Source of the DNA: an uncultured Spirochaetaceae bacterium
Lineage (GTDB): Bacteria > Spirochaetota > Spirochaetia > DSM-27196 > CAZPXH01
DNA length: 64,000 nt
Reading direction: 5' to 3'
Assembly (NCBI GenBank): GCA_964591085.1
Contig: CAZPXH010000003.1
Span: 158,426 to 222,425, forward strand
Every line of letters begins with the position of its first letter. Position 1 is the stretch's first letter. The translations under genes and the position numbers were made by a program. This document shows positions 35,915 through 52,756 of the stretch, piece after piece. The notes under the pieces were generated by a model. The model searched no databases. It saw nothing but the letters and a program-made list of their open reading frames with translations, and was not told the origin of the DNA.

Positions 35915-36134
35915 GGCTCTATCATGCCCTAGCGTCCACAACTTGTCAATATTCCTGACTGCTGTAGTCAAGAATTAGACCGAGTTGGAGTGTGTGCAAG
36001 TACGCCTTGCGCAGCAATTCCTCGCCGAGGATCAGCTCAGCTCTGCGAAAGAAGCTTCCTCAGGGACGATCCAAGCTGCTGCAGCCGGGATCAGAAGCAC
36101 GCTCGGTACCGGCGTGTCTGCCAAGCGCGGGCAA

Positions 36135-36335
36135 TCACCCCGCAACCAGGATCGCGCCAGCGCTAGAAGCAAGCTCTCGGGCAGCGTCATCTGAGTCAGC
36201 ATCCGCGACAATCCTCTCGCAGCCCTCGGCGGTCTGGCGCGCGAGATCTCGCAGCAGATCGGGGAGCAAGTCCTCTCCATTGAACGCGGGAATGATTATG
36301 CTTGCGGTCTCAAAGGGCGCACGTGGCAAAAACAC
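36135..36335 (-). pseudogene. Relic N-terminal fragment of a family-2 glycosyltransferase
   Basis: The 66-aa ORF MFLPRAPFETASIIIPAFNGEDLLPDLLRDLARQTAEGCERIVADADSDDAARELASSAGAILVAG* matches the GT2 N-terminal pattern (sIIIPayNee..L...L.sL..Qt....EiIVvDdgStD.t.e.a). It stops after about 66 aa. None of the three downstream frames, read by eye, continues the family. Confidence 0.4.
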
Positions 36336-36372
36336 ACCAACGGGCCCGGAAGGCCGCAGCCGTCATACGGCG

Positions 36373-38265
36373 ATGCTTTTTCTCATTGCGCAACCCCCTG
36401 CCTGTCCGTATCGTCCGCTGGTGACCAGCCCCCCAGTTAGAAACATTGCAATCATCGCCCACGTAGACCACGGCAAGACAACGCTTGTGGATGCCATGTT
36501 CCGCACCTCCGGCATCTTCCGCGAAGGCAAGGTGGTAGAGGAACGGCTCATGGATCGCATGGATCTTGAGCGGGAGCGTGGCATCACCATCGCAGCCAAG
36601 AATTGCGCCATCAACTGGAAGAACACCAAGATCAACATCATCGATACGCCGGGTCACGCGGACTTTGGGGGCGAGGTGGAGCGCGCGCTCTCCATGGCCG
36701 ATGGTGCCTTGCTGCTCGTGGACGCGGCGGAGGGACCGTTGCCGCAAACTCGATTTGTCCTGCGAAAGACGCTGGAAGCCGGGCTTCCGGTCATTGTAGT
36801 GGTGAACAAGCTGGACCGGAAGGACGCGCGCCCGGAAGTGGTATTGGATCAGATCTCTGATCTCTTCATTGACCTGGATGCAAGCGAGGAGCAGTACCAC
36901 TTCCCTCTGCTGTATGCAGTTGCGCGGGACGGTATTGCTGCGCCGGAACCCGCCGGTGTCGGCTTTGTGAATGGGGCGTTCTCCGGCATCCCGGATGGCG
37001 CAACGCTGCAGCCGCTGCTGGATGCAATCCTTGAAACGGTCCCAGCTCCAGCACTTGATCCTGCAGGCGACTTCCAGATGCTGGTGAGCGACCTCGGGTA
37101 TTCCGATTACCTCGGGCGTCTGGCAATCGGTCGGATCCACGCGGGTGTGGTTCGCTCCGCGGATCAGCTCGCGCGGATTGATTCAGACGGGAACATCAGC
37201 CCGCTGCGGGTGACGCGCCTCCAGGTGTACGACGGGATCTCCATTGTTGAGGCGGAGGAGGTCTCAGCTGGGGACGTGGTGGTGCTTTCCGGCATAGACG
37301 AGGTGCACATCGGAGACACAATCTGCAAGCGCTCGGCTCCCAAGGCACTCCGGCGAATCACCGTAGACGAACCGACGGTCACCATGCTCTTCCTGCGAAA
37401 CTCCGGGCCGCTGTCCGGGACGGAAGGCAAACTGGTGCAGTCCACCCGCATCCGCGAACGCCTGGACAAGGAGACGCTGTCCAATGTGTCACTCCGGGTT
37501 GACGATGCGCCCGGCCAGGACGGCTTTGTGGTCATGGGTCGTGGCGAGTTTCAGATGGCTATCCTCATAGAGACCATGCGGCGCGAGGGCTTTGAGCTGT
37601 GCGTTGGCCGACCCCGCGTGATCACCCGGAAGGCCGCTGACGGCACGCTGGAAGAGCCAATCGAACGACTGTTTGTGGATACCGCCGAAGAGTACACGGG
37701 AATCGTTACGGAGAAGCTCTCTATCCGCAAAGGGCGGCTGGTGAACCTGACAAACCACTCGCGCGGCCGCACCCGTCTTGAGTTCAGCATCCCCTCCCGC
37801 GCCCTCATCGGCTTCCGGGATGAGCTGCTCACCGACACCCGCGGGACCGGAATCATGAACGCGTACCTTGAAGGCTACGAGGCATGGCGCGGAGACTTTC
37901 CCAGCCGCCAGACCGGCTCGCTTGTCAGCGATAGAGAGGGCGTCACCGTTCCCTACGCGCTGTTCAACCTGGAACCGCGCGGACAGCTCTTTGTGGGCCC
38001 CGGCCAGAAGGTCTACGAGGGAATGGTTGTGGGCGAGCACAACCGGGACAATGACCTGGACGTGAACCCCTGCAAGACCAAGAAGCTCACCAACATGCGG
38101 GCGGCCGGGCGCGATGAGAACGTGATCCTCACACCCTACCGGGCGATGACACTGGAGATGGCAATCAACTTCATCCGTGACGATGAGCTGGTTGAGGTCA
38201 CGCCCAGGTCCATCCGGATGAGAAAAGCAGAACTCCTGCAGACCGAACGGAAGCGCCAGCGTTAG
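36373..38265 (+). CDS. typA: Translational GTPase TypA/BipA
   Basis: [40 protein letters not shown]-like domains. The track ORF from 35992 is over-extended. Candidate starts are the ATG at 36373 or the GTG at 36421 ([12 protein letters not shown]...). The latter matches family N-terminal length better. Confidence 0.93.
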
Positions 38266-38316
38266 CGGACCGGGAAGCCTTCTCACAGGCAGGTTGCCGT
38301 AGTACAAAAGGAAAGC

Positions 38317-39888
38317 ATGCAGGCGGAGCACCCGTTCCGGGGCCGTTCGGTCACAGCAATCCGTGATCTCAACCGGGACGAGCGGCTCTATCTGTACCGC
38401 CGGACCCGGGAGCTCAAGACGCTTCTTCTGCAGGGCGAGTCAGCGGATCTGTTTCGGATAAACCATCCGGATTTTGGTATGTACGAAATCTTTTTGGAGG
38501 ACAGCACCCGTACACGGGAGTCCTTCAAGAACGCCGCGATGTTTCACCGGATCAAGGTGTCCGAGCTGAACGCCGGCAGTTCATCCTTCAACAAAAAGGA
38601 AAGCTACGCAGACACCATCGCCAACCTCATTGGCTACGGCAACCGGGTGTTCGTACTGCGGACCACCCTTGAGGGCGTCTGCCGTCACCTGGTGGAGCAA
38701 ACCGAGCACTATCGCAAGCGCCACGGCCTGCAGCACGGAATCTCCTTCATCAATGCGGGTGACGGACTCCACGAGCACCCCACCCAGGAACTGCTGGACG
38801 AGTTCACGTTCCTGGAAGACCTGGACTGGTCTCCACAGCGGATCCACCTGGCGCTGGTCGGCGACCTCTATCACGGACGCACGGTGCACTCCAAGGTGTA
38901 CGGGCTGGACCTGTTTGAGTCGGTGAAGGTGGATCTGGTTGCTCCCGCGGAGCTTGCAATGCCAGCGGCCTACGTCCGGGCAATGGAGCGGCAGGGCTTT
39001 GCGGTGCAGAGCTTCCCGTCAATAGATGCGTATCTGGAGTCCGGGGACGTAGCACCACAATGGTACTTCACACGCCCGCAGCTTGAGCGAATGGGAGACC
39101 GGATCCTGCGTCGGCAGGCGGAACTCCGGGCGGCAATCACCTTCACCGAGGACAAGATCGGCCGCGTGTCCGCCAGCACCCGCTTCTACCACCCGCTTCC
39201 CCGCCACCGCGAGCACCCCACAATCCCCGCAGCACTGGACGCAACCCACCTCAATGGCTGGGAACGCCAGTCTGCCAACGGATACCTGGTGCGAATTGTG
39301 CTTCTGGCAATGGTGGCAGGACGCATCGGTGATGATTATCACGGGCCGATCGCGAGCCCCCGCCCGCTTCCGCGCGACTACATCACGGAGGTGGAGCCGA
39401 CCCACAGCAAGCCAAAGCGCTACTCGGAGGGCGTTCGCCCAATCCACGACGGCGTGGTGATAGACCACATATGCAGCGGAGACCCTCCCCAGGAGATTCG
39501 CCGGCACATGGTAACCTTGCAGGCGGTTGCGCGCCTTCACGGCCGCGGTGGTGAGTGGGTGTCGACCGGCTCAGACGGAAGCCACAAGGGAATTCTTTTC
39601 CGGCCCGAGTTCGGCGAATTGAGCGACGACCAGATGGAAACGCTGGCGGCGGTTGTACCGGGCGCAACGGTGAACGTGATTTCGGGAGGCGAGGTGAAGC
39701 GGAAGGTTCGGCTCAGTCGCCCGCCCCGCATTGCAGCAATTCCAGGCCTCCGGTGTGGGAACCCCAACTGCATCACCCACCCGGACCACGCGGAGGGAAT
39801 CATCCCGAGTTTTCAGCGTACTGAAGATGACAGCTACGCGTGCGAGTACTGCAGCCGAGAGCACACCTTCAAGGAGATCTGGGTTTGA
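38317..39888 (+). CDS. pyrBI: Fused aspartate carbamoyltransferase catalytic + regulatory chains (PyrB-PyrI)
   Basis: 523 aa. ATCase motifs STRTR, HEHPTQ and HPLPR in aa 1-330. A roughly 35-aa linker follows. Then PyrI-like GVVIDHI... and a Zn domain CGNPNC...CEYC. Confidence 0.9.
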   Translation: MQAEHPFRGRSVTAIRDLNRDERLYLYRRTRELKTLLLQGESADLFRINHPDFGMYEIFLEDSTRTRESFKNAAMFHRIKVSELNAGSSSFNKKESYADTIANLIGYGNRVFVLRTTLEGVCRHLVEQTEHYRKRHGLQHGISFINAGDGLHEHPTQELLDEFTFLEDLDWSPQRIHLALVGDLYHGRTVHSKVYGLDLFESVKVDLVAPAELAMPAAYVRAMERQGFAVQSFPSIDAYLESGDVAPQWYFTRPQLERMGDRILRRQAELRAAITFTEDKIGRVSASTRFYHPLPRHREHPTIPAALDATHLNGWERQSANGYLVRIVLLAMVAGRIGDDYHGPIASPRPLPRDYITEVEPTHSKPKRYSEGVRPIHDGVVIDHICSGDPPQEIRRHMVTLQAVARLHGRGGEWVSTGSDGSHKGILFRPEFGELSDDQMETLAAVVPGATVNVISGGEVKRKVRLSRPPRIAAIPGLRCGNPNCITHPDHAEGIIPSFQRTEDDSYACEYCSREHTFKEIWV

Positions 39889-41477
39889 GTTCTGTCTCTG
39901 AGGAAGTGATTTCCGCGGCGCGTGAGGCAGGTGCCCTCAGCATCCAGACTGACCCGCCGTTCCGCTGGGCCTCCGGCGCCATGATGCCGGTGTACAACGA
40001 CAATCGCATCCTCATGGCCACGCCCCGTGGTCGCCGCGCTGTCCTTGGCGGCTTTGCTGCGATCATCGCGAAGAATGGGCTGGACTTTGATGGGGTAGCC
40101 GGGACGGCGAGCGCCGGCATAGCGCCAGCCACGCTGGTGGCCGAACACTTTCAGTGCCCGCTCTACTACGTCCGCGCGGAAAGCAAGGGCCACGGCCGGG
40201 AACGGCTGATTGAGGGAGCTCCCGAGGCAGGCCTGGACGGACAGCGGATCCTCCTGATTGAAGATCTCATCTCTACGGGGGGCAGCAGCACGCGTGCTGC
40301 AGAGGCCCTGATCCGCGCCGGCGCTCGGGTCACGGCCTGCCTGGCAATCTTCAGCTACGGGTTTGCCGGCGCCGCAGAGCGCATTCAGACACTTCCCGGC
40401 TCGCCACCGCTGCGGGTGCTTGCCTCTGTCACGGACCTTGTTCGGGATGGCAGGACGCGCGGCTGGCTATCGGCCGAGGATGGTGAGATCATTGACGAGT
40501 GGCTCGCAGATCCCTTTGGGTGGTGGGAAGCCCGGCAGGCCCTGTCACCGGTGCCCGCGACTATCACGGTGGACCAGCCCGACAAGGCAGCGGCCCGCGC
40601 GGCTGACATCGCTTCCCGCCTGAGTACCGCAGCCACGTCCGCAGGCCACCTGTTGTGCGTGGGCATTGATCCCCGGCCGGAGCTGCTCCCGGCGGGGATG
40701 GACGTTGCTGAGTTCCTGACGGGGGTGCTGGAAGAGATTTCTGCTAGCGGGCCGCCTCCTGCGGCCTTCAAGCCCAACATCGCGTACTTCCACCAGCTCG
40801 ACCGTCCCCTGGAAGAGGATTTCAGTGGCACCCGGGCGCTCGCTGCAACGATCAGTCATATCCGCTCCTCGTTCCCTGAAATCCCGGTGATACTGGACGC
40901 CAAGCGCGCGGACATCGCGGCAAGCAGCGCCGCGTACGCCAGGGAGGCCTTTGGAGCGTGGCACGCCGATGCGCTCACCGTCTCACCCTTCATGGGAGAC
41001 GATTCGGTAGCCCCCTTCCTTACGGCGGCGGCGGAGGCAGACACCGCCCGCTGGGTGTACGTGCTCAACCGGACAAGCAATCCCGGGGCACAGCGCTTCC
41101 AGGACAACGCTGACAGCAGTACCGGCCGTCCCTTGTTTGAGTCGGTAGCGCATGCAATTCAGGCCTGGCAGCGCGAGTACGGGACCGCGGGTGCCGTGAT
41201 TGGCGCTACGGCGCCCGAAGAGCTTGAACGGCTTCTGCAGCTGCACTCGGCGCTTCCCCTGCCGATTCTAGTGCCGGGCGTTGGCGCTCAGGGTGGTTCA
41301 GCCGCGGGAGTCATGGACGCCATTTCCCGCTCCGGCTTCCCGGCGGGTCTTGTCCGAATCTCTGCGTCCAGGCAAATCCTCGCGCCGTGGGGCGACCGGG
41401 GTGCCCCCAGGACCTGGCGCCGAGAAGTTGCGGCGAGCTATGCGAATCTGGCCACGGAGTGCGCGTGGCAGGGTTGA
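39885..41477 (+). CDS. pyrEF: Fused orotate phosphoribosyltransferase + OMP decarboxylase (PyrE-PyrF, UMP-synthase-like)
   Basis: The N-terminal half has the PRTase motif ILLIEDLISTGGSS. The C-terminal half is a type-2 OMP decarboxylase (LCVGIDPR, ILDAKRADIAASS, PGVGAQGG). The TTG at 39885 is preceded by AAGGAGA with a 7-nt spacer and overlaps the pyrBI stop (TTGA). Confidence 0.9.
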   Translation: MSSVSEEVISAAREAGALSIQTDPPFRWASGAMMPVYNDNRILMATPRGRRAVLGGFAAIIAKNGLDFDGVAGTASAGIAPATLVAEHFQCPLYYVRAESKGHGRERLIEGAPEAGLDGQRILLIEDLISTGGSSTRAAEALIRAGARVTACLAIFSYGFAGAAERIQTLPGSPPLRVLASVTDLVRDGRTRGWLSAEDGEIIDEWLADPFGWWEARQALSPVPATITVDQPDKAAARAADIASRLSTAATSAGHLLCVGIDPRPELLPAGMDVAEFLTGVLEEISASGPPPAAFKPNIAYFHQLDRPLEEDFSGTRALAATISHIRSSFPEIPVILDAKRADIAASSAAYAREAFGAWHADALTVSPFMGDDSVAPFLTAAAEADTARWVYVLNRTSNPGAQRFQDNADSSTGRPLFESVAHAIQAWQREYGTAGAVIGATAPEELERLLQLHSALPLPILVPGVGAQGGSAAGVMDAISRSGFPAGLVRISASRQILAPWGDRGAPRTWRREVAASYANLATECAWQG

Positions 41478-43291
41478 GCCCGGCGGAAGCGCGCGCCGCG
41501 GCAGCGGAGTCTCGTGCAAACAGGCTGCGCGCCATGATCCGCGAACGCGCCTCCAGCAGAAGCGGCGCACCCGACGGTTCCGCCTCCATTCCCATAGCAA
41601 CGGTGAGCGGCATTGCTTCCACAACGGCGGGCATGATTGCGTGGTTTGACCGCGCCACTGCGGTCACAATCATCACCACCAAGAGTTTTCAGCTGCAGCC
41701 CAACCCCGGCAACGGAGAACCAATCATCACGGAAGCCAGGCCCGGATGCTTTGGCAACGCGGTGGGTCTGCGCAACCCCGGAATTCGGACCGGGATATCG
41801 CAGCTTGCGGCGCTCCGTGCAAGCACCGACATCTCCGCCCTGCTGCTGGTATCGCTGTCCGGGACCACTGCGGATGAGTTTGCACAGCTCGCCCGGCGTG
41901 CCGCGTCGGTCGCAGACATGGTGGAGCTCAACTACTCCTGCCCGCACGCCACCAAGGGCTATGGGGCGGACATCGGCAAGGACCGGGATCTTATCCAGCA
42001 GATCACGGCGGTGGTTGTAGAAGCAGTCGGGGAGATCCCGGTCATCGTCAAGCTCACACCCAACGTTCCGGACATTGCTGCAATGGCGGAAGCGGCAATT
42101 CTGGGCGGAGCGGCGGGTGTCAGCGCAATCAACACCGTGGGACCGGCCACCTACCCCCACCCGGGGGCTGGAGCGCAGATCCTCACAAACCCTCCTGACG
42201 GGCGCGGTGGCCAGAGTGGCGAGTGGGTCCGGGAGGTGGCAGTACATGCGGTCCGCAGCATCCGTGAGAGAATTGGCGGTTTCCCCGTCATCATCGCAAT
42301 GGGCGGAGTAGCCACACCGCAGGATGCGGAAGCCCTTGCGAGCGCCGGTGCTGATGTGGTGGGCGTGGGCAGCGCACTTGCCCGAATCCACCAACGCGAG
42401 TGGCCGTTGTACCTGCGTTCGCTCGCAACCGGCGCCAAATCCACCATATCCACGGAGCCGTCACCGCCATCCCTGCCGTCCCTGCGGGCGGCTGCCGGAA
42501 TGGAGCTCAGGCCACACCAGGTCTTTGCCATCCGGGAGATTGGTGGTGATCTGGTTGAGCTGGACGTCCAGTTGCCCCTGGAGTTTGCGCCGGGACAGAG
42601 CGTGTTCATCTGGATCCCAGGAGTCGGTGAGAAGCCCTTTGCTCCCGCCATCACCACGGCAGGAAGCGATTCCTCAGGCGGCGTTACTACTTTCCTGATC
42701 AAGCGCAGGGGCCCGGTGACCCGCGCTATCGCAGCAAGCCGTGCCGGTGACTCTGTGTACATCCGAGGTCCCTACGGAGATGCCTGGAGTCCAGCGACAC
42801 CGGAGCAGGCGGTGCGAGCTCCGGTGGCTGGCGGCAGCGCCCTCCTCCTTGCGGCCGGAAGTGGGATGGCAACGCTTCCCGGTGTGGCGGAGCGCTATCA
42901 CCGCGCCGGATACTCGGTGCACGCGGCAATTGGTGTGCGGACCGCCATTGCCGGGAGCTCCGTACTTGCATCGCTGGAGCGTTGGGCATCCGTGGAGGTG
43001 GTGCCGGATCAGGGCCAGGAGGCCCGGGTGCTGCAACAGATTGCCTCCCTGCTGTCTGGCCGCGCAGCGGAGAACAGGCCAGTACAGCGGGCGTGGGTGT
43101 GCGGTCCGGAGCGATTCATGCAGAGGGCCATGGAGACCTTGCGTGCCGCCGGGCTGCCTCCAGGGCAGATTCAGCTCTCCCTGGAGCGGATGATGCGATG
43201 CGGTGTGGGAATGTGCGGCGAGTGCCACCACAAGGGACTGCTAACCTGCCAGTTTGGAACAGTGATAACCGCGGAGGAGATTGGACAATGA
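41465..43291 (+). CDS. pyrDK: Fused dihydroorotate dehydrogenase catalytic subunit + electron-transfer subunit (PyrD-PyrK)
   Basis: The N-terminal part is a class-1B-like DHODH TIM barrel (TTKSFQLQPNPGNGEPI, GNAVGLRNPG, ELNYSCPHA, IAMGGVATPQDA). A Ser/Pro linker follows. Then a PyrK-like FAD/NAD domain and a 2Fe-2S motif MRCGVGMCGECHH...C. The start is uncertain: GTG at 41465 (GGAG 5 nt upstream), TTG at 41474 (TTGA overlap) or ATG at 41534. Confidence 0.85.
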   Translation: MAGLSPAEARAAAAESRANRLRAMIRERASSRSGAPDGSASIPIATVSGIASTTAGMIAWFDRATAVTIITTKSFQLQPNPGNGEPIITEARPGCFGNAVGLRNPGIRTGISQLAALRASTDISALLLVSLSGTTADEFAQLARRAASVADMVELNYSCPHATKGYGADIGKDRDLIQQITAVVVEAVGEIPVIVKLTPNVPDIAAMAEAAILGGAAGVSAINTVGPATYPHPGAGAQILTNPPDGRGGQSGEWVREVAVHAVRSIRERIGGFPVIIAMGGVATPQDAEALASAGADVVGVGSALARIHQREWPLYLRSLATGAKSTISTEPSPPSLPSLRAAAGMELRPHQVFAIREIGGDLVELDVQLPLEFAPGQSVFIWIPGVGEKPFAPAITTAGSDSSGGVTTFLIKRRGPVTRAIAASRAGDSVYIRGPYGDAWSPATPEQAVRAPVAGGSALLLAAGSGMATLPGVAERYHRAGYSVHAAIGVRTAIAGSSVLASLERWASVEVVPDQGQEARVLQQIASLLSGRAAENRPVQRAWVCGPERFMQRAMETLRAAGLPPGQIQLSLERMMRCGVGMCGECHHKGLLTCQFGTVITAEEIGQ

Positions 43292-44346
43292 TTGATCCCC
43301 ACGTGCACCTGCGGGACTGGGCCCAGAGCGAGAAGGAAACGCTCGCCCACGGACTCTCATTCGCGTGGCGCATCGGTCTCTCCGGAGTTTTTGAGATGCC
43401 AAACACGAATCCCCCACTTACCACCAGAGATGCGATAGCGCGGCGCCTTGCGGACGCGGATCGGGCCAGGGCGGAGATCAACTCCCCCATCTTCCACGGC
43501 CTGTACTTTGGCGCCACGCCGGATCCCGATCAGCTTGCCGAGGTTGTTGCCGCGCACGCCGAGTTCTTTCCCCGCGTTGTGGGGATGAAGCTCTTTGCCG
43601 CGCACAGCACCGGACGGATGGGAGTGATCACGCGGGACGCGCAGTGGCGGGTCTGGAGCAGGCTTGCAGAGCTGGACTACCGCGGCGTGGTTGCCGTGCA
43701 CGCGGAGACGGAGGATCTGTGTTACCCGGAACTCTGGGATCCGGCCGATCCCATCAGCCACGGAACGGTGCGCCCGGTGGCCGCGGAGATACACTCGGTC
43801 AGGCAACAGATTGAGCTTGCAAGCGAGGCAGGATTCCGGGGCAGCCTGCACATCGTGCACGTCACCACCCCGGATGTGCTGGACATCATCAATGAGGCAC
43901 GCGGCAGCCATTCCTTTGCCATCCGCGGTGGCGTGACGCCGCACCACGCGCTCCTGAATGATTCGCTCCTGCGGAAGTCCGTTGTTCCGGAGTGGAAGGT
44001 GAACCCGCCGATCCGGCCGCCGGCCATCCAGGAAGTCATGTACCAGCGCGTCATGTCCGGGTCCATTGACTGGATTGAGAGCGACCACGCTCCCCACACG
44101 CTGGAAGACAAGCGCGCCGGCGCGAGTGGCATCCCCGGCATCCCGGCCTTCCGCCTGCTCACCGACATGCTGCGTGAAAGGCTATCTCCCGATGATGCGG
44201 ACCGCCTCACCCACCAGGCCGTGATAGACGCGTTCCAGATCCCGGCAGATACATTCCCGGAGAATCCTGCAGCACACGCTCCCTGGTCCTACACCGACGC
44301 CGCAACGGAATACCCCTGGGATCCCTACCGCTTCCTGGTGGGATAG
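43288..44346 (+). CDS. pyrC: Dihydroorotase
   Basis: MIDPHVHLRDW, MPNTNPP, VGMKLF, AVHAE, HIVHVTT, NPPIR, SDHAPH motifs. The ATG at 43288 forms an ATGA overlap with pyrDK, with a GGAGGAG RBS. The track ORF from 42982 is over-extended. Confidence 0.88.
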   Translation: MIDPHVHLRDWAQSEKETLAHGLSFAWRIGLSGVFEMPNTNPPLTTRDAIARRLADADRARAEINSPIFHGLYFGATPDPDQLAEVVAAHAEFFPRVVGMKLFAAHSTGRMGVITRDAQWRVWSRLAELDYRGVVAVHAETEDLCYPELWDPADPISHGTVRPVAAEIHSVRQQIELASEAGFRGSLHIVHVTTPDVLDIINEARGSHSFAIRGGVTPHHALLNDSLLRKSVVPEWKVNPPIRPPAIQEVMYQRVMSGSIDWIESDHAPHTLEDKRAGASGIPGIPAFRLLTDMLRERLSPDDADRLTHQAVIDAFQIPADTFPENPAAHAPWSYTDAATEYPWDPYRFLVG

Positions 44347-48191: not shown

Positions 48192-51100
48192 CTATAGCGA
48201 AAGCTTGGCGGACAAACTGTATACCCGACCAAGGCGCCGGGACTCAACTACGTTGCTCCCGTCTGCGGACCGCTCACTGCTCAGGGTAGTCTCAGACAAC
48301 GGATCAAGGATGTTTTCAACACTGAACCCGATAGAGAAGTACTGAGAGAAGCTTTGGTTCAGCACAACATTCAGGCGCTGGAACGGCTGCTCATAGATAT
48401 CCGGCACGCCGTTTGTGCCAATGGTCACGATCCGGGGACCAAAGACGTTATAGTTGAAAAAGAGTGACGTGTACTGGTCCCGATTCTGTGACCATGAAAC
48501 GGTGTTCCGATACCCCAGCGAAACATTCACAACGTAGGGAGACTGGCCTTCCAGTGGTCGGGTTGCATTGGTGTTCGCCACCGCCTTGTCCTCCGTCAGG
48601 CCCGAGTTGGGATCCGTGAGTGTGAGGACAAACTCCGAAGAATCAATCTGCGATGCGATGTAGGCAAAGTTGCCGGTCAGGGTGAGATCCCGGAAGACCC
48701 CGGCCACACCCCCAAGCAGCTGCCGGCGGCGAAGTGTCTGATCAAGCGTAGGGGCGTTCACGTTGATCACCGCGCGGCGGATCAAGTCTCCCACGTAGCG
48801 TCCGGTCAGTTGCCACTCAAGCTCTGCACCCACGTTCTGCGCCGTGGGGATGTTCCCAAGGGTAGTAAGCAGCTCTCCACCCCCGCGGTTGAGCTGAAAG
48901 CGCTCAACCGGGTTCTGGAAGTACTTGTAAAAGCCACCAAGGCTTATAAATTCACGCTCCGCGATATACCACTCCCATCGGGCGTCTGCGTTGTACAGCC
49001 GAGCGATTTTCAGAGTCGGATTCCCCTGGAAAGAGCCTGATCCGGGCGCGCCGCTGTATTTCTCCTGCGGGGAGAGCTCATTGAGATCCGGCCGGTTCAG
49101 CGTAGCGCTTACTCCCAGACGCAGTTGAGTGTCATCCCCAGTGGGAACGGTGAGATTCACCGCCGGCAGCAGCATGTCCAGGATAGATGCCGGTACCAGC
49201 ACCTGTGCAGGGGCCGGGTCACCGGTGAACCGGTCAAAGGAACTGACCGCCTGTCGTGACCACTCCACCCGTACTCCGGTGGAGAGCCGTGAGCTGCCAA
49301 AGAGCAGGATGTCGGCCTTTGTGTAGCCAGACAGTACAAGCTGCCTACTGCTTATGTTGTCCGTCGGCAGGGTGAACTCCGCAAAGTCAAAGATCCCGTC
49401 CGGCCCAATATTCTCCGAGGTAAAGAAGTCGTCAGGGTCCCCCGACACTATGTCTTTGTTCGTGCCCGCGTCGTCGTAGTCGTATCCAAAGCGTCGGGTC
49501 TCTGACGAACGCGTCTGATAGAACGCCTGCAGCCCAAAATCCACAAAGTCCGCGGAGGCGTTTCCGAACCAGCCCACCGGAATTGAAAGAGAGAGCCCCC
49601 CGTCGTGCACAAAGTCATTCACATCGGTGAAGATGCGGCGGGTGGACGTCTGATCCTGCCAGAGGTAGGACTCTTCTTCTATAAAGTCCCCGTTATCCGT
49701 ATCCTCCCGGAACACGTAGTAACGGCGATCAGGCTGATAACTGCGGGCAAAGGAGAAACCGTAGCTCCACACAAGCTGCGAACCACCCAGGCCGGGCAAC
49801 CGGTGCCGACCGCGCAGCGCCTGATTCAGAAGCGTCTGCTCCACCCAGAGCGTCTCCGTCTCCCCTATGTCAAACTGCTCGGACCCGTATTCACCCTGCA
49901 GCTTCTCAACCGTTGCGTCGGTGGCTCGCACCGCAAGTGAACTGGATTCCAGCCGGAAGGCGCGGGTGTCCTCGTAGACAAGCTCAACCAGAGCACCTAT
50001 ATCAATGTCACGCGTGTTCAGCCTGACGTCGTAGTCATGGATCGGACGTCCGAGTGTATCCGGGTCATTGGACGGCTCGTAGAAGGTCTGACGCTCGGTG
50101 ATGGAGTTCCAGCTGTCCTTCATGGTGAGGCTGGCGGTAAATCCAAAGTTGTGAAACTCAGACAGCTCAACTTTGTCACGAACAGAGACACTTCCGCTGT
50201 AGTCAAGCGGGATCATTCGTGGGGCCGGTGACCACGTACGCGCGAACGACTCACCAAACGCTTCCCGTTCCTCTTCATCGTAGCCCTCGCCGCCAATTCC
50301 ACCCGCCGGACCAATAAGAAACTCTGAATCATCAATCGATTCGGGCAGCGCGCGCGTTCCATCGTCAAATCCCAGGAAGTCAAACGCCCCACCCTCTTCA
50401 AAGAGTTCGGTAGTGAAGGTGGTGTTTTCTTTGTAGGAGAGAGAGAAAGAGACATCCGTGCGCAGGCGGCGGCGGTACTGATCGTCCGGCAGACCAATTG
50501 TCTCTACGTTTATGGCGCCACCGCCAAACTGACCGGGAAGCTCGGGAGAGTAGGTCTTCTGAACGGCCAGGGTCTCTATAATGCCGGCCGGGAAGAGATT
50601 CAGTGGCACCACCCGCTTGTCCACCTCCGGGCTTGGAAGGCCGGCTCCGTTCAAGTAGGAGCTTGAGTAGCGCTCTCCCATCCCACGCACGTAGACAAAG
50701 CGGCCGCCTACAATGGTGAGCCCGGTTATACGGCGCAGAGCACCTGCGGCATCTGAGTCTCCGCTCCTGCCGATCTGCTCCTGACCAATAAAGTTCACCA
50801 CCGCGTCTGAGTCCGCCATCTCTTCAATGAGCTTGGCAATGCCACCCTCCACGCGAACCTCTTCCACCGCAAAGACCGTCTGCTCGGCTAGCGCGACCGC
50901 CTGGGGCGTGAGCTCAACGTCCACGGTGGTCTCACCGTCGGCAACAACCTCCACCTCGCTGATTGTCTGAGTGGAGAAGTCCGGCTGAATCACCGAGAAG
51001 GTATGTAAGCCTTCGGGTAGCTCAACCTGGAACCGGCCGTCGTCATCCGTAGTCGCTTCGCGATCAATCCCACGAAACACAATGGTTGCTCCCGCGATCG

Positions 51101-51554
51101 GAGAGCCGTCCTCCAGTGCCGTCACGCGGCCGGTGATCAGACCCGGGTCGGCGTCCTCGTCGAACGTCGAGTCAGTTCCGCCTTCAGCGGCATCGGGAGC
51201 CTCGTCAGAGAGCAGACTGTCGGCCGCGCCGGCGGTGACAATAGCCTCGGTGACGGACCCCTGACGCACGGAGAGCCCCACGGTCACAATAAGTGCGTCT
51301 TCAAAGTACAGATCAAACTCATGAGAGCCGGGAGGGTAGGTGAAGTTAATAAGCCCGCTTCTGTTGGAAACCACGGTTCTCTCCGGGAGACGGACCTCCA
51401 CCCCCTCAAGCGGAGCGCCGTCCTGTGAAAAGATGTAGATCTGCACCTCACCGCGATTATCCTGCGCAGAGACCGTCACAAGCCCTGCTGTGAGCGTGAG
51501 GACCATCACTGCTGCCAGAAAAATATTCCGTTTTATCATATGACCTCTCTCCAT
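48192..51554 (-). CDS. Giant TonB-dependent outer-membrane receptor with N-terminal carboxypeptidase-regulatory-like domains (Oar/SusC-like architecture)
   Basis: 1120 aa. Signal peptide ...LVTVSA/QD, then two beta-sandwich-like repeats. Plug region DSDAAGALRRITGLTIVGGRFVYVRGMGERYSSSYLNGAGLPS, then a long Gly/Asp/Tyr/Phe-rich barrel. Confidence 0.9.
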   Translation of the reverse strand: MERGHMIKRNIFLAAVMVLTLTAGLVTVSAQDNRGEVQIYIFSQDGAPLEGVEVRLPERTVVSNRSGLINFTYPPGSHEFDLYFEDALIVTVGLSVRQGSVTEAIVTAGAADSLLSDEAPDAAEGGTDSTFDEDADPGLITGRVTALEDGSPIAGATIVFRGIDREATTDDDGRFQVELPEGLHTFSVIQPDFSTQTISEVEVVADGETTVDVELTPQAVALAEQTVFAVEEVRVEGGIAKLIEEMADSDAVVNFIGQEQIGRSGDSDAAGALRRITGLTIVGGRFVYVRGMGERYSSSYLNGAGLPSPEVDKRVVPLNLFPAGIIETLAVQKTYSPELPGQFGGGAINVETIGLPDDQYRRRLRTDVSFSLSYKENTTFTTELFEEGGAFDFLGFDDGTRALPESIDDSEFLIGPAGGIGGEGYDEEEREAFGESFARTWSPAPRMIPLDYSGSVSVRDKVELSEFHNFGFTASLTMKDSWNSITERQTFYEPSNDPDTLGRPIHDYDVRLNTRDIDIGALVELVYEDTRAFRLESSSLAVRATDATVEKLQGEYGSEQFDIGETETLWVEQTLLNQALRGRHRLPGLGGSQLVWSYGFSFARSYQPDRRYYVFREDTDNGDFIEEESYLWQDQTSTRRIFTDVNDFVHDGGLSLSIPVGWFGNASADFVDFGLQAFYQTRSSETRRFGYDYDDAGTNKDIVSGDPDDFFTSENIGPDGIFDFAEFTLPTDNISSRQLVLSGYTKADILLFGSSRLSTGVRVEWSRQAVSSFDRFTGDPAPAQVLVPASILDMLLPAVNLTVPTGDDTQLRLGVSATLNRPDLNELSPQEKYSGAPGSGSFQGNPTLKIARLYNADARWEWYIAEREFISLGGFYKYFQNPVERFQLNRGGGELLTTLGNIPTAQNVGAELEWQLTGRYVGDLIRRAVINVNAPTLDQTLRRRQLLGGVAGVFRDLTLTGNFAYIASQIDSSEFVLTLTDPNSGLTEDKAVANTNATRPLEGQSPYVVNVSLGYRNTVSWSQNRDQYTSLFFNYNVFGPRIVTIGTNGVPDIYEQPFQRLNVVLNQSFSQYFSIGFSVENILDPLSETTLSSERSADGSNVVESRRLGRVYSLSAKLSL

Positions 51555-51568
51555 TATTTTGAAATCTC

Positions 51569-52756
51569 CTACAACTGTTCCGCTTCTGATTCAATAATCT
51601 GACGGAGCTCCACCGCGCGGCGGAACATCTCCGGATCTGAAATCCCCTGCAGGTATCCTCTCGCTCGCTCCAGTTGACCGGTGCGGAAGTACGCATAGGC
51701 AAGGGAATAGCGAATCTCATCTTCTTCATCCGCAGACTGACGAACCAGGCGCGGCTCCATGGCAACGGCCTCTTCAAAGCGCTCGGAGGCAAGCAAAAGG
51801 CGAAACCGTTGCCGTGTCTTCTGCTCTCCGTCCAAAACCTGGGTGTTCAGGTAAAACGCCTTCTGCAGGTCACCGGCACGCCGGTAAAGCTCAGCCGCCT
51901 CAAAGTAGAGGGAAAAATCTCCAGCCGCGGCCTCCTCTACCAGTCTGGCGGCGGTACGGGGCATCTCCTGCTCAAGGTAGCTCTGCGCCAGCAGCAACCG
52001 CACCTCACGTGAGGCGGGGAAGCGGATCCTCGCCTCCTCCAACACCCGAATAGCGGTCTCCCTCTCTCCGCCCTGACGCAGCGCCTGACCAATGGTGAGG
52101 TAACTCTCCGGTTCCGGCGGCGCACTTTCAAGGAACGCCACACTGCGGCGAGCGGCTTCCTGTGAGAGACCCAGCTCAAGCAGGTATACAATCTGCTGGC
52201 GCCCAAAGCTGTCTATGTCCGGAAAAAGCAGTTGCGCACGCGAGAGCGTCTGGAAGGCACGCTCCCATTGACCGAGGTTCCATTCCGCGGCAGCCCGCAC
52301 GCTGTAAAGGCTTGGGAACTCCCGCAGACTCGGCAATCGGTTGATAGCTTCAATGGTCTGCTCAAATGAGCCGGTCAGGTAGTACGCCTGGGCAAGGTAC
52401 GCGTTTATGGACGGATCTTCCTGTCCGTTCTCAAGAGCGTCCTGCAGGGAAGTGATTGCCTGTTCGGCGTCTCCCCTGCGCAGGGCAAGCAATCCCTGCA
52501 GCGTGTAGAACCGGGCAAGATCAACATCCGGGGCCTGCACATCCACGTTGGCCAGCGCGCTTTCTGCCCGAGAGAGATTGCCGTCTCTCAGCATAAGGGC
52601 CGCAATTGCTACGTAGTCCACATCAGCACCGGCTGATTCTCCCGGCGTCTCGCTCTCCTGACCGCCGGAAGCGTACAGAGGCACGAAAGCACTTGTGAAC
52701 ATGATCATACACAGCAGCAGCGGTATTCCGGTGGAGTTGATTCTTGCCGTGCGCAT
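51569..52756 (-). CDS. TPR-repeat protein (TtpD-like position after tonB)
   Basis: 395 aa. N-terminal signal/anchor IPLLLCMIMFTSAFVPLYASG. Multiple TPR-like units (FYTLQGLLALRRGDAEQAITSLQDALE..., AYLAQAYYLTGSFEQTIEAI...). 1-nt overlap with tonB. Confidence 0.75.
   Translation of the reverse strand: MRTARINSTGIPLLLCMIMFTSAFVPLYASGGQESETPGESAGADVDYVAIAALMLRDGNLSRAESALANVDVQAPDVDLARFYTLQGLLALRRGDAEQAITSLQDALENGQEDPSINAYLAQAYYLTGSFEQTIEAINRLPSLREFPSLYSVRAAAEWNLGQWERAFQTLSRAQLLFPDIDSFGRQQIVYLLELGLSQEAARRSVAFLESAPPEPESYLTIGQALRQGGERETAIRVLEEARIRFPASREVRLLLAQSYLEQEMPRTAARLVEEAAAGDFSLYFEAAELYRRAGDLQKAFYLNTQVLDGEQKTRQRFRLLLASERFEEAVAMEPRLVRQSADEEDEIRYSLAYAYFRTGQLERARGYLQGISDPEMFRRAVELRQIIESEAEQL

Follow-up and report, generated by a model that had tools for sequence, protein, structure and literature searches.

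A pyrimidine operon with three fused genes in an uncultured spirochaete and its place among related five-gene operons

The locus described here raises the question of whether a bacterial pyrimidine operon in which three of four genes are fusions is real and, if so, how it came about. It lies at positions 38317-44346 on the plus strand of the window, a 64-kb stretch of contig CAZPXH010000003.1 from an uncultured Spirochaetaceae bacterium, and comprises four co-directional genes: pyrBI (523 residues), pyrEF (530 residues), pyrDK (608 residues), and pyrC (352 residues). The host is a high-GC spirochaete related to Alkalispirochaeta. Our analysis favors, with a probability of about 0.82, a functional operon for de novo synthesis of uridine monophosphate (UMP) that represents the local form of a five-gene spirochaetal operon, with pyrE and pyrF fused in the ancestor of a small clade. 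Judging from the sequence, the four genes specify enzymes that are complete, appear to be active, and cover UMP synthesis from step 2 to step 6, a route that would run from carbamoyl phosphate and aspartate to UMP. An initial annotation had counted seven activities; seven modules are indeed present, but they amount to five catalytic steps (UMP synthesis steps 2-6), one regulatory module (PyrI), and one electron-transfer module (PyrK).

Four plus-strand open reading frames (ORFs) were listed for the locus (38317-39888, 523 residues; 39840-41477; 41387-43291; and 42982-44346), and the NCBI gene calls for the 236.8-kb contig gave proteins of 523, 530 (TTG 39885), 608 (GTG 41465), and 352 residues (ATG 43288). 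The starts chosen here agree with these calls, which supports TTG 39885, GTG 41465, and ATG 43288. Pfam and NCBIfam analysis placed the domains of PyrB and PyrI, PyrE and PyrF, and PyrD and PyrK in one ORF each, with conservation in homologues, bearing out the initial annotation's reading of three single frames with linkers; the linker positions that it gave coincide with the borders between domains and with those parts of the structure models where confidence is low.

PyrBI (38317-39888), a fused aspartate carbamoyltransferase (ATCase), consists of a catalytic chain (residues ~1-335), a linker (residues ~336-372; nucleotides (nt) ~39322-39432), and a regulatory chain (residues 373-523). Pfam assigned OTCace_N to residues 10-167, OTCace to residues 176-331, the allosteric domain PyrI to residues 373-466, and the zinc domain PyrI_C to residues 478-521. 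Residues 5-522 aligned to positions 3-523 of the 525-position profile NF009916 with 693.3 bits, under the curated cutoff of 800, and by this comparison PyrBI is a divergent member with the architecture of that family. The motifs STRTR (S63-T66), HPTQ (H154-Q157), and HPLPR (H292-R296), as well as the zinc cysteines C480, C485, C509, and C512, were invariant in 30 homologues. The AlphaFold2 monomer model reached a predicted local distance difference test score (pLDDT) of 87.8 and a predicted template modeling score (pTM) of 0.83, with confidence lowest in the linker. The best 120 database clusters were all full-length fusions, including one from the cultured Parasphaerochaeta coccoides; several homologues are named bifunctional by NCBI, and NF009916 is itself a curated NCBIfam model.

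In PyrEF (39885-41477), one open frame holds a complete orotate phosphoribosyltransferase (OPRT; residues ~7-219) followed by a complete orotidine monophosphate (OMP) decarboxylase (ODCase) of the pyrF_sub2 type (residues ~243-500), with a linker at nt ~40540-40610; Pfam recognized Pribosyltran (OPRT) and then OMPdecase. The PyrE half matched NF001729 and TIGR00336, with residues 22-234 (numbering of the long ORF) corresponding to positions 15-225 of the 231 in the NF001729 profile. Residues 258-515 of the PyrF half (same numbering) corresponded to profile positions 2-249 of 261 in TIGR02127 (pyrF_sub2), which scored 176.9 bits (cutoff, 110.6), and TIGR01740 reached 28.4 bits, below its cutoff of 92.3. 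Alignment with homologues revealed conserved phosphoribosyl pyrophosphate-binding and ODCase cores joined by a linker whose length varies greatly. As candidate internal starts for PyrF, the linker offers just two in-frame GTG codons, both lacking a Shine-Dalgarno (SD) motif, and its sequence lends no support to such a start.

Fusion of PyrE to PyrF is the arrangement of the eukaryotic UMP synthase (UMPS). Against NF004034, the PyrF-then-PyrE family, PyrEF scored 143.1 bits in two stretches (cutoff, 656), the domain order being opposite, and the closest solved chain, Leishmania UMP synthase 3qw4_B, likewise has the reversed order. The E-then-F architecture at good identity was found in 11 protein clusters (clustered at 90% identity); the next matches were stand-alone PyrF proteins, followed by hundreds of proteins of 460-490 residues that matched the PyrF half only, fit the F-then-E architecture of NF004034, and carry the JGI name "uridine monophosphate synthetase". 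A HMMER search over 1.84 billion 50%-identity representatives recovered approximately seven clusters with the E-then-F order from end to end, one being the clade of PyrEF itself and six showing 32-35% identity. Two of the six stand alone, outside any pyr operon, so that the E-then-F fusion has also arisen independently in other bacteria. In one unrelated bacterium, two neighboring genes (L084:5518-6837, minus strand, and L084:7001-8545) comprise an independent E-then-F pyrEF and a 439-residue PurC-PurE fusion; this latter fusion of SAICAR synthetase and AIR carboxylase resembles eukaryotic PAICS.

PyrDK (41465-43291) is a fused dihydroorotate dehydrogenase of the class-1B (DHODB) type made up of an N-terminal helix (residues 6-33), the PyrD barrel (residues ~43-307), a linker (residues ~308-349; nt ~42386-42511), and a PyrK-like part (residues ~350-608). 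Pfam assigned DHO_dh to the barrel, and the PyrK half is an FAD/NAD plus 2Fe-2S module. The PyrD half scored 171.9 bits against NF005574 (cutoff, 269), and the PyrK half scored 113.7 bits (8e-33) against NF000796 over residues 398-632 of the long ORF (cutoff, 224). The catalytic cysteine of the SCPH motif (C159) and the cluster cysteines C579, C584, C587, and C595 were invariant in 34 homologues. The AlphaFold2 monomer model (pLDDT 91.5, pTM 0.91) retrieved, in a Foldseek search, DHODB PyrD chains (5ksw_A, 1ep1_A) and PyrK-family chains (9nf0_C, 5jca_S), and for the PyrD half both the best sequence matches and the best fold matches were DHODB PyrD chains. The long helix predicted for residues 6-33 (41480-41563) had a block pLDDT of 82-96 and a sequence that is poorly conserved among homologues.

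More than 120 database clusters matched PyrDK, and the best 120 covered at least 90% of the query, including one from the cultured Sediminispirochaeta smaragdinae. NCBI calls these homologues simply "dihydroorotate dehydrogenase", apart from a few that carry a wrong name, either "nitronate monooxygenase" (P0184) or "tRNA-dihydrouridine synthase" (P0215). Precomputed Pfam annotation of nearly all the homologues (P0129-P0248) lists the PyrD half only and misses the PyrK half (42512-43288 in the window), an annotation gap that touches hundreds of proteins. No NCBIfam curated family or published description of the PyrDK fusion was found.

PyrC (43288-44346; 352 residues) is a short dihydroorotase (DHOase) that begins at the HxH metal motif and is without ~50 N-terminal residues of the type-I enzymes. 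It matched TIGR00857 with 8.4e-47 and 160 bits, below the cutoff of 279; no Pfam family matched at E ≤ 0.01, and every NCBIfam cutoff was missed. Its start, M-I-D-P-H-V-H, corresponds to residue ~53-55 of the DHOases 7uof and 3mpg and to curated-profile position 41-58. The ligands H5, H7, K101, H138, H191, and D266 align to the ligand positions of 7uof and 3mpg. Because these metal ligands are all invariant, and the start M-[IV]-D-x-H-V-H is conserved, in 27 relatives, the short PyrC is, on present alignments, a clade-wide form and not a truncation, and it appears to be a barrel-only branch of the type-I DHOases that lies outside the existing classification.

In a high-GC metagenome-assembled genome (MAG), stops or frameshifts that went unnoticed could in principle mimic such fusions: the contig comes from an uncultured organism, and at the 61-66% GC of the operon region random stops are rare and long spurious ORFs common, with many antisense ORFs listed. 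However, the fusions recur in JGI, ENA, NCBI, and Logan assemblies at 50-79% identity, and no fewer than 8 independent assemblies show the same architecture. In JGI metagenomes, a PyrEF with 53% identity lies in a four-gene layout of the same kind (551, 606, 613, and 350 residues, with overlaps of 4, 10, and 4 nt) in another neighborhood, after an Hpt gene instead of typA. Functional residues are invariant on both sides of every linker in PyrBI, PyrDK, and PyrEF, with both halves of each protein conserved to residue level at the catalytic sites, whereas the linkers differ among relatives in length and sequence and yet stay in frame. The AlphaFold2 models of PyrBI and PyrDK are confident in either half, with weak parts confined to the linkers. 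Given the independent assemblies, the residues conserved on both halves, and the variable but in-frame linkers, an assembly or sequencing artefact is extremely improbable and is excluded for practical purposes.

To place these fusions among relatives, we used an alignment of fused PyrEF proteins to search a single genome from each GTDB species. Relatives turned up in 304 species, and the top 80 loci were retrieved. Seven domain queries cut from the window proteins were then compared by blastp with the stop-to-stop ORFs of 83 loci (handles of the form L001 below refer to surveyed loci). Nearly all of these loci share the order B-I, E, F, D-K, C. B and I occupied one ORF in 78 of the 79 loci where both halves were found, as did D and K in all 74 informative loci, and the arrangement pyrBI-pyrE-pyrF-pyrDK-pyrC is the norm in the ~80 surveyed genomes of Sphaerochaetaceae, Alkalispirochaeta, and relatives. 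A single ORF for E and F was confined to the window and to Alkalispirochaeta-like and "Spirochaeta sp." MAGs (L001-L006 and L023). The split pyrE and pyrF genes abut in Sphaerochaeta, Pleomorphochaeta, Bullifex, Sediminispirochaeta, Haliotispira, and a few Marinimicrobia/Fidelibacterota bins, with junctions that are either ATGA-type overlaps or an SD motif plus ATG within ~10 nt. No publication describing these spirochaete fusions or the operon was found in our literature search. A pyrB-pyrI fusion has reportedly been noted in Treponema denticola, for which the same search gave no confirmation.

Some loci of the survey depart from the compact layout. An ISL3 transposase gene lies directly 5' of pyrBI in L003 (L003:4982-6205) and is absent in L001 and L002, ~1.5 kb separate pyrDK and pyrC in L051 (L051:11418-12989), and ~600 nt separate pyrBI and pyrE in L020 (L020:7400-8001). 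The operon type also occurs in bins labeled Neomarinimicrobiota, Fidelibacterota, Peribacteria, Ruminococcaceae, and Oscillospiraceae (L027, L035, L046, L064, and L081), reflecting either horizontal transfer or mis-binned spirochaete contigs. Read-through of an in-frame pyrE stop, suggested by pyrE and pyrF lying in the same frame in 39 of 76 split loci, was rejected: every case has a normal stop followed by an SD motif and a start. The excess of same-frame loci is a sampling effect: tblastn favors them in its ranking, and the survey took the top 80 of 304.

A neighbor-joining tree of PyrBI from the surveyed loci grouped all E-F-fused loci in one clade, with the split Alkalispirochaeta loci L048, L050, and L051 as its sister, and the spirochaete PyrEF fusion is thus confined to a single recent clade with split-gene relatives. 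L045, in which pyrE and pyrF are split, is nested in the fused clade; its junction (L045:2676-2810) has a TGATG overlap, a GGAGGAG SD motif, and a linker-like N-terminal extension of PyrF, which suggests a secondary fission of pyrEF rather than an error. Because B-I and D-K are fused in nearly every relative and E-F in one clade, these comparisons indicate a stepwise route, with two old subunit fusions (B-I and D-K) followed by one recent fusion of sequential enzymes (E-F). We infer that the E-F fusion arose once, in the Alkalispirochaeta-like lineage, from neighbors that were already translationally coupled. The stop codon between tightly abutting pyrE and pyrF would have been lost in the clade ancestor, giving a UMP-synthase-like protein and a four-gene operon.

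Whether such a step brought any benefit is a separate matter. The fusions could be real yet essentially neutral, the loss of a stop between coupled genes being cheap and its outcome kept by drift and by the low stop frequency at high GC; this we rate as quite possible, somewhat short of even odds. Where relatives have pyrE and pyrF split, translational coupling between the two is already in place, so that changing one stop codon is enough to fuse them, and the PyrEF linkers are unconserved and very variable in length. GC content is high in all loci with fused E-F (0.66-0.72, which places them near the top of the survey), while the split loci average 0.50. Despite this correlation, the idea that high GC caused the fusion was rejected: GC is confounded with phylogeny, as there was a single E-F event, and pyrE and pyrF are split in L048 and L051, two sister loci of high GC. 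The apparent return to separate genes in L045, with a clean TGATG junction and GGAGGAG SD motif, fits neutrality, as does the occurrence of both PyrE/PyrF fusion orders in bacteria, but the repetition of the fusion in eukaryotic UMPS and in other bacteria argues for some advantage. Furthermore, the B-I and D-K fusions have been kept over deep, diverse genomes (38-79% identity), suggesting that they are at least not disfavored.

Selection for stoichiometry or channeling is best described as plausible, and the ways in which it might act differ between the fusions. ATCase of Escherichia coli is an obligate hetero-oligomer (c6r6), and OMP hand-over has been proposed for UMPS. The B-I and D-K fusions would join partners of obligate 1:1 hetero-oligomers and so hard-wire the subunit ratio, and the PyrE-PyrF fusion may favor OMP hand-over. 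The class-1B dihydroorotate dehydrogenase of Lactococcus lactis is a PyrD2-PyrK2 heterotetramer (PMC8097209), and each of its subunits is destabilized when the other is missing (PMC8097209). Co-transcription, translational coupling, the oligomeric state, and a benefit of fixed stoichiometry or OMP channeling are presumed here. The four genes are most likely carried on one transcript, and termination-reinitiation at the overlapping start codons, helped by SD motifs, would give a near-equimolar output.

The initial annotation had gone further and proposed systematic selection across the whole pathway, a claim at odds with the 83-locus survey, in which the fusions are stepwise and E-F is restricted to one small clade that includes the split L045. 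Its description of the locus as unusual likewise appears overstated, given the curated model NF009916 for PyrBI, the occurrence of PyrDK in more than 120 clusters, and the E-then-F PyrEF proteins elsewhere in bacteria. It had also allowed that novelty would fall if all three fusions proved widespread and already catalogued: PyrBI and PyrDK are widespread and PyrBI is catalogued, but PyrEF is clade-specific, and the call of three fusions itself stands.

Inspection of the junctions agreed with the overlaps and ribosome-binding sites reported initially. At the pyrBI/pyrEF junction (39871-39888), the SD motif AAGGAGA (39871-39877) precedes the TTG start at 39885, which overlaps the TGA at 39886-39888 (TTGA); the PyrEF N-terminus resulting from this start aligns with 10 homologues. 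At the pyrEF/pyrDK junction (41456-41477; TGA 41475-41477), GGAG (41456-41459) lies 5 nt before GTG 41465, which would overlap pyrEF by 13 nt, and an alternative in-frame start, TTG 41474, would give a 4-nt TTGA overlap. GTG 41465 is favored, as the resulting PyrDK N-terminus (MAGL...) is also present in the 73%-identical homologue P0130. At the pyrDK/pyrC junction (43273-43291), the SD motif GGAGGAG (43273-43279) precedes ATG 43288, which overlaps the TGA at 43289-43291 (ATGA). The SD motifs of pyrEF, pyrDK, and pyrC thus all sit within the 3' ends of the preceding genes.

Upstream, the typA-pyrBI spacer (38266-38316, plus strand) is 51 nt long, as first noted, and carries an SD-like AAGGAAAG at 38308-38315; typA stops at 38265, and the ATG of pyrBI lies at 38317. 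Scans of this gap revealed no Rfam family at E ≤ 1, no promoter-like site, and no plus-strand terminator-like site, and the RNA fold of the spacer was not better than that of shuffled sequences (z = +1.8). The 3' flank of the operon likewise gave a fold not better than shuffled sequence and empty Rfam and promoter/terminator scans. These results are in line with the earlier report that no leader or attenuator is visible. The typA frame itself (35992-38265, 757 residues) is open for ~150 codons 5' of the GTPase G1 motif; TypA is roughly 600 residues long, and the true typA start probably lies well downstream of 35992.

The reported absence of carA, carB, and pyrR was likewise borne out: none of the three occurs in or near the operon, and no CarB-like ORF of CarB size exists in the 64-kb window. 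A carA-carB candidate on the minus strand at 48192-52756 (395 and 1120 residues) was rejected, as Pfam identified a TPR protein and a CarboxypepD_reg/Plug TonB-receptor-like protein, the latter being the sole ORF of more than 1000 residues in the window. The genes flanking the operon region include pstSCA and an iron-siderophore-type ATP-binding cassette system. This pair (48192-52756, minus strand), a 1120-residue protein with CarboxypepD_reg and TonB-Plug domains beside a 395-residue TPR protein, adjoins pstSCA; a TonB-dependent-receptor-like protein is not a default expectation in a spirochaete.

Several points weigh against reading the locus as a functional UMP operon with a single recent pyrE-pyrF fusion. 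Its function is predicted from sequence comparison and structure models, and all four proteins score below the NCBIfam cutoffs of their closest equivalogs and are hence divergent. The fusion frequencies apply only to the best 80 of 304 loci, which were retrieved via PyrE motifs, and the single origin is drawn from a simple neighbor-joining tree of one protein. As promoter and terminator were not found, the transcription unit is an inference, and it may include typA, there being nothing that separates the two. The PyrK half is only weakly visible to Pfam (DHODB_Fe-S_bind, 18.7 bits; cutoff, 23.9), and among solved structures its sequence comes closest to hydrogenase-gamma and NfnA-type subunits and not to L. 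lactis PyrK, which makes the electron acceptor of PyrDK uncertain; NAD+ would be the expected one.

This last point leads to a further alternative, namely that the C-terminal half of PyrDK is not a true PyrK but another member with a ferredoxin-NADP+ reductase (FNR)-like fold and a 2Fe-2S cluster (NfnA, SudB, or hydrogenase-gamma), with an acceptor such as ferredoxin or NADP+. The best solved matches of residues 371-589 were sulfhydrogenase gamma 9nez_C (1e-16) and the NfnA-like 4ylf_A and 5jca_S; L. lactis PyrK was not among the 60 solved matches listed for this half, and the Foldseek ranking was alike. The fourth cluster cysteine follows the third by 8 residues, a spacing that is longer in L. 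lactis PyrK, and the Pfam iron-sulfur domain stays below its cutoff, as given above. However, among curated families the PyrK equivalog NF000796 fits this half best (8e-33), with hydrogenase gamma NF006220 behind it (2e-23), and conservation extends to the four cysteines and to the nucleotide-binding motif GxGxA. Moreover, in all surveyed genomes this PyrK-like module is covalently joined to a class-1B-type PyrD within a pyr operon. We therefore consider it unlikely that the module is anything other than a divergent PyrK.

Even less likely, and proposed by analogy, is that the three fused chains and the short PyrC assemble into a pathway-level complex in which the PyrBI oligomer docks the barrel-only PyrC. 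In Aquifex, ATCase activates DHOase. If such a complex existed, carbamoyl aspartate, dihydroorotate, and OMP would be handed over between the fused chains, the short PyrC, without the adjacent-domain segment, would depend on PyrBI for activity, and the operon would form a bacterial counterpart of eukaryotic CAD/UMPS built from subunit fusions plus a sequential-enzyme fusion.

Returning to the operon as a local form of a five-gene arrangement, two of its three fusions are the regional norm, with PyrBI already catalogued, and the third, E-F, is recent, restricted to a single clade, and of a type known from eukaryotes and other bacteria. In architecture, the locus departs only modestly from known enzymes, and it is otherwise an ordinary biosynthetic operon. 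Its value lies in offering a clean, datable natural series for enzyme fusion, with pyrE and pyrF separate, fused, and apparently re-split in close relatives, beside two older subunit fusions (the catalytic and regulatory chains of ATCase, and PyrD and PyrK of the dehydrogenase) fixed across a wide clade. It also exposes gaps in annotation: the PyrK half of several hundred proteins, misnamed PyrDK homologues, and a short dihydroorotase that Pfam does not recognize. The single-chain ATCase and single-chain DHODB could suit structural or biotechnological work.

Comparison with known systems shows where the operon stands. Its closest counterpart is the spirochaetal five-gene operon of Sphaerochaeta, Pleomorphochaeta, Bullifex, Sediminispirochaeta, and many MAGs, which has the same gene order, B-I and D-K fusions, short PyrC, and junctions that are tight or overlap; pyrE and pyrF are separate there, whereas they form one gene in the window and in 7 related loci (~five distinct lineages). 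PyrBI resembles the bifunctional ATCase of NF009916 / PRK13376 in its PyrB-then-PyrI order, equal length, and end-to-end profile alignment. PyrEF shares with animal UMPS the use of one chain for steps 5 and 6 in the order E then F, and with the bacterial and kinetoplastid ODCase-OPRT proteins (NF004034 / PRK05500; 3QW4) the ODCase subtype TIGR02127, although the latter have the reversed order; unlike these eukaryotic and bacterial UMP synthases, it is encoded inside a spirochaete pyr operon, where it probably arose on its own, and has a long and variable linker. PyrDK matches L. lactis DHODB (PDB 1EP1) in its FMN barrel with a catalytic cysteine and its FNR-like FAD module with a C-terminal 2Fe-2S cluster, but it is one chain in the order D then K, with an extra N-terminal helix, a divergent PyrK half, and a last cysteine that is spaced closer. 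The Bacillus gene order, pyrK-pyrD, is opposite to D-then-K. Finally, PyrC finds its best sequence matches among the type-I dihydroorotases (7UOF, 3MPG; Aquifex 3D6N), with which it shares HxH, the carboxylated lysine, two histidines, and the aspartate, but it is about 70-100 residues shorter and is without the N-terminal part of the adjacent beta-domain.

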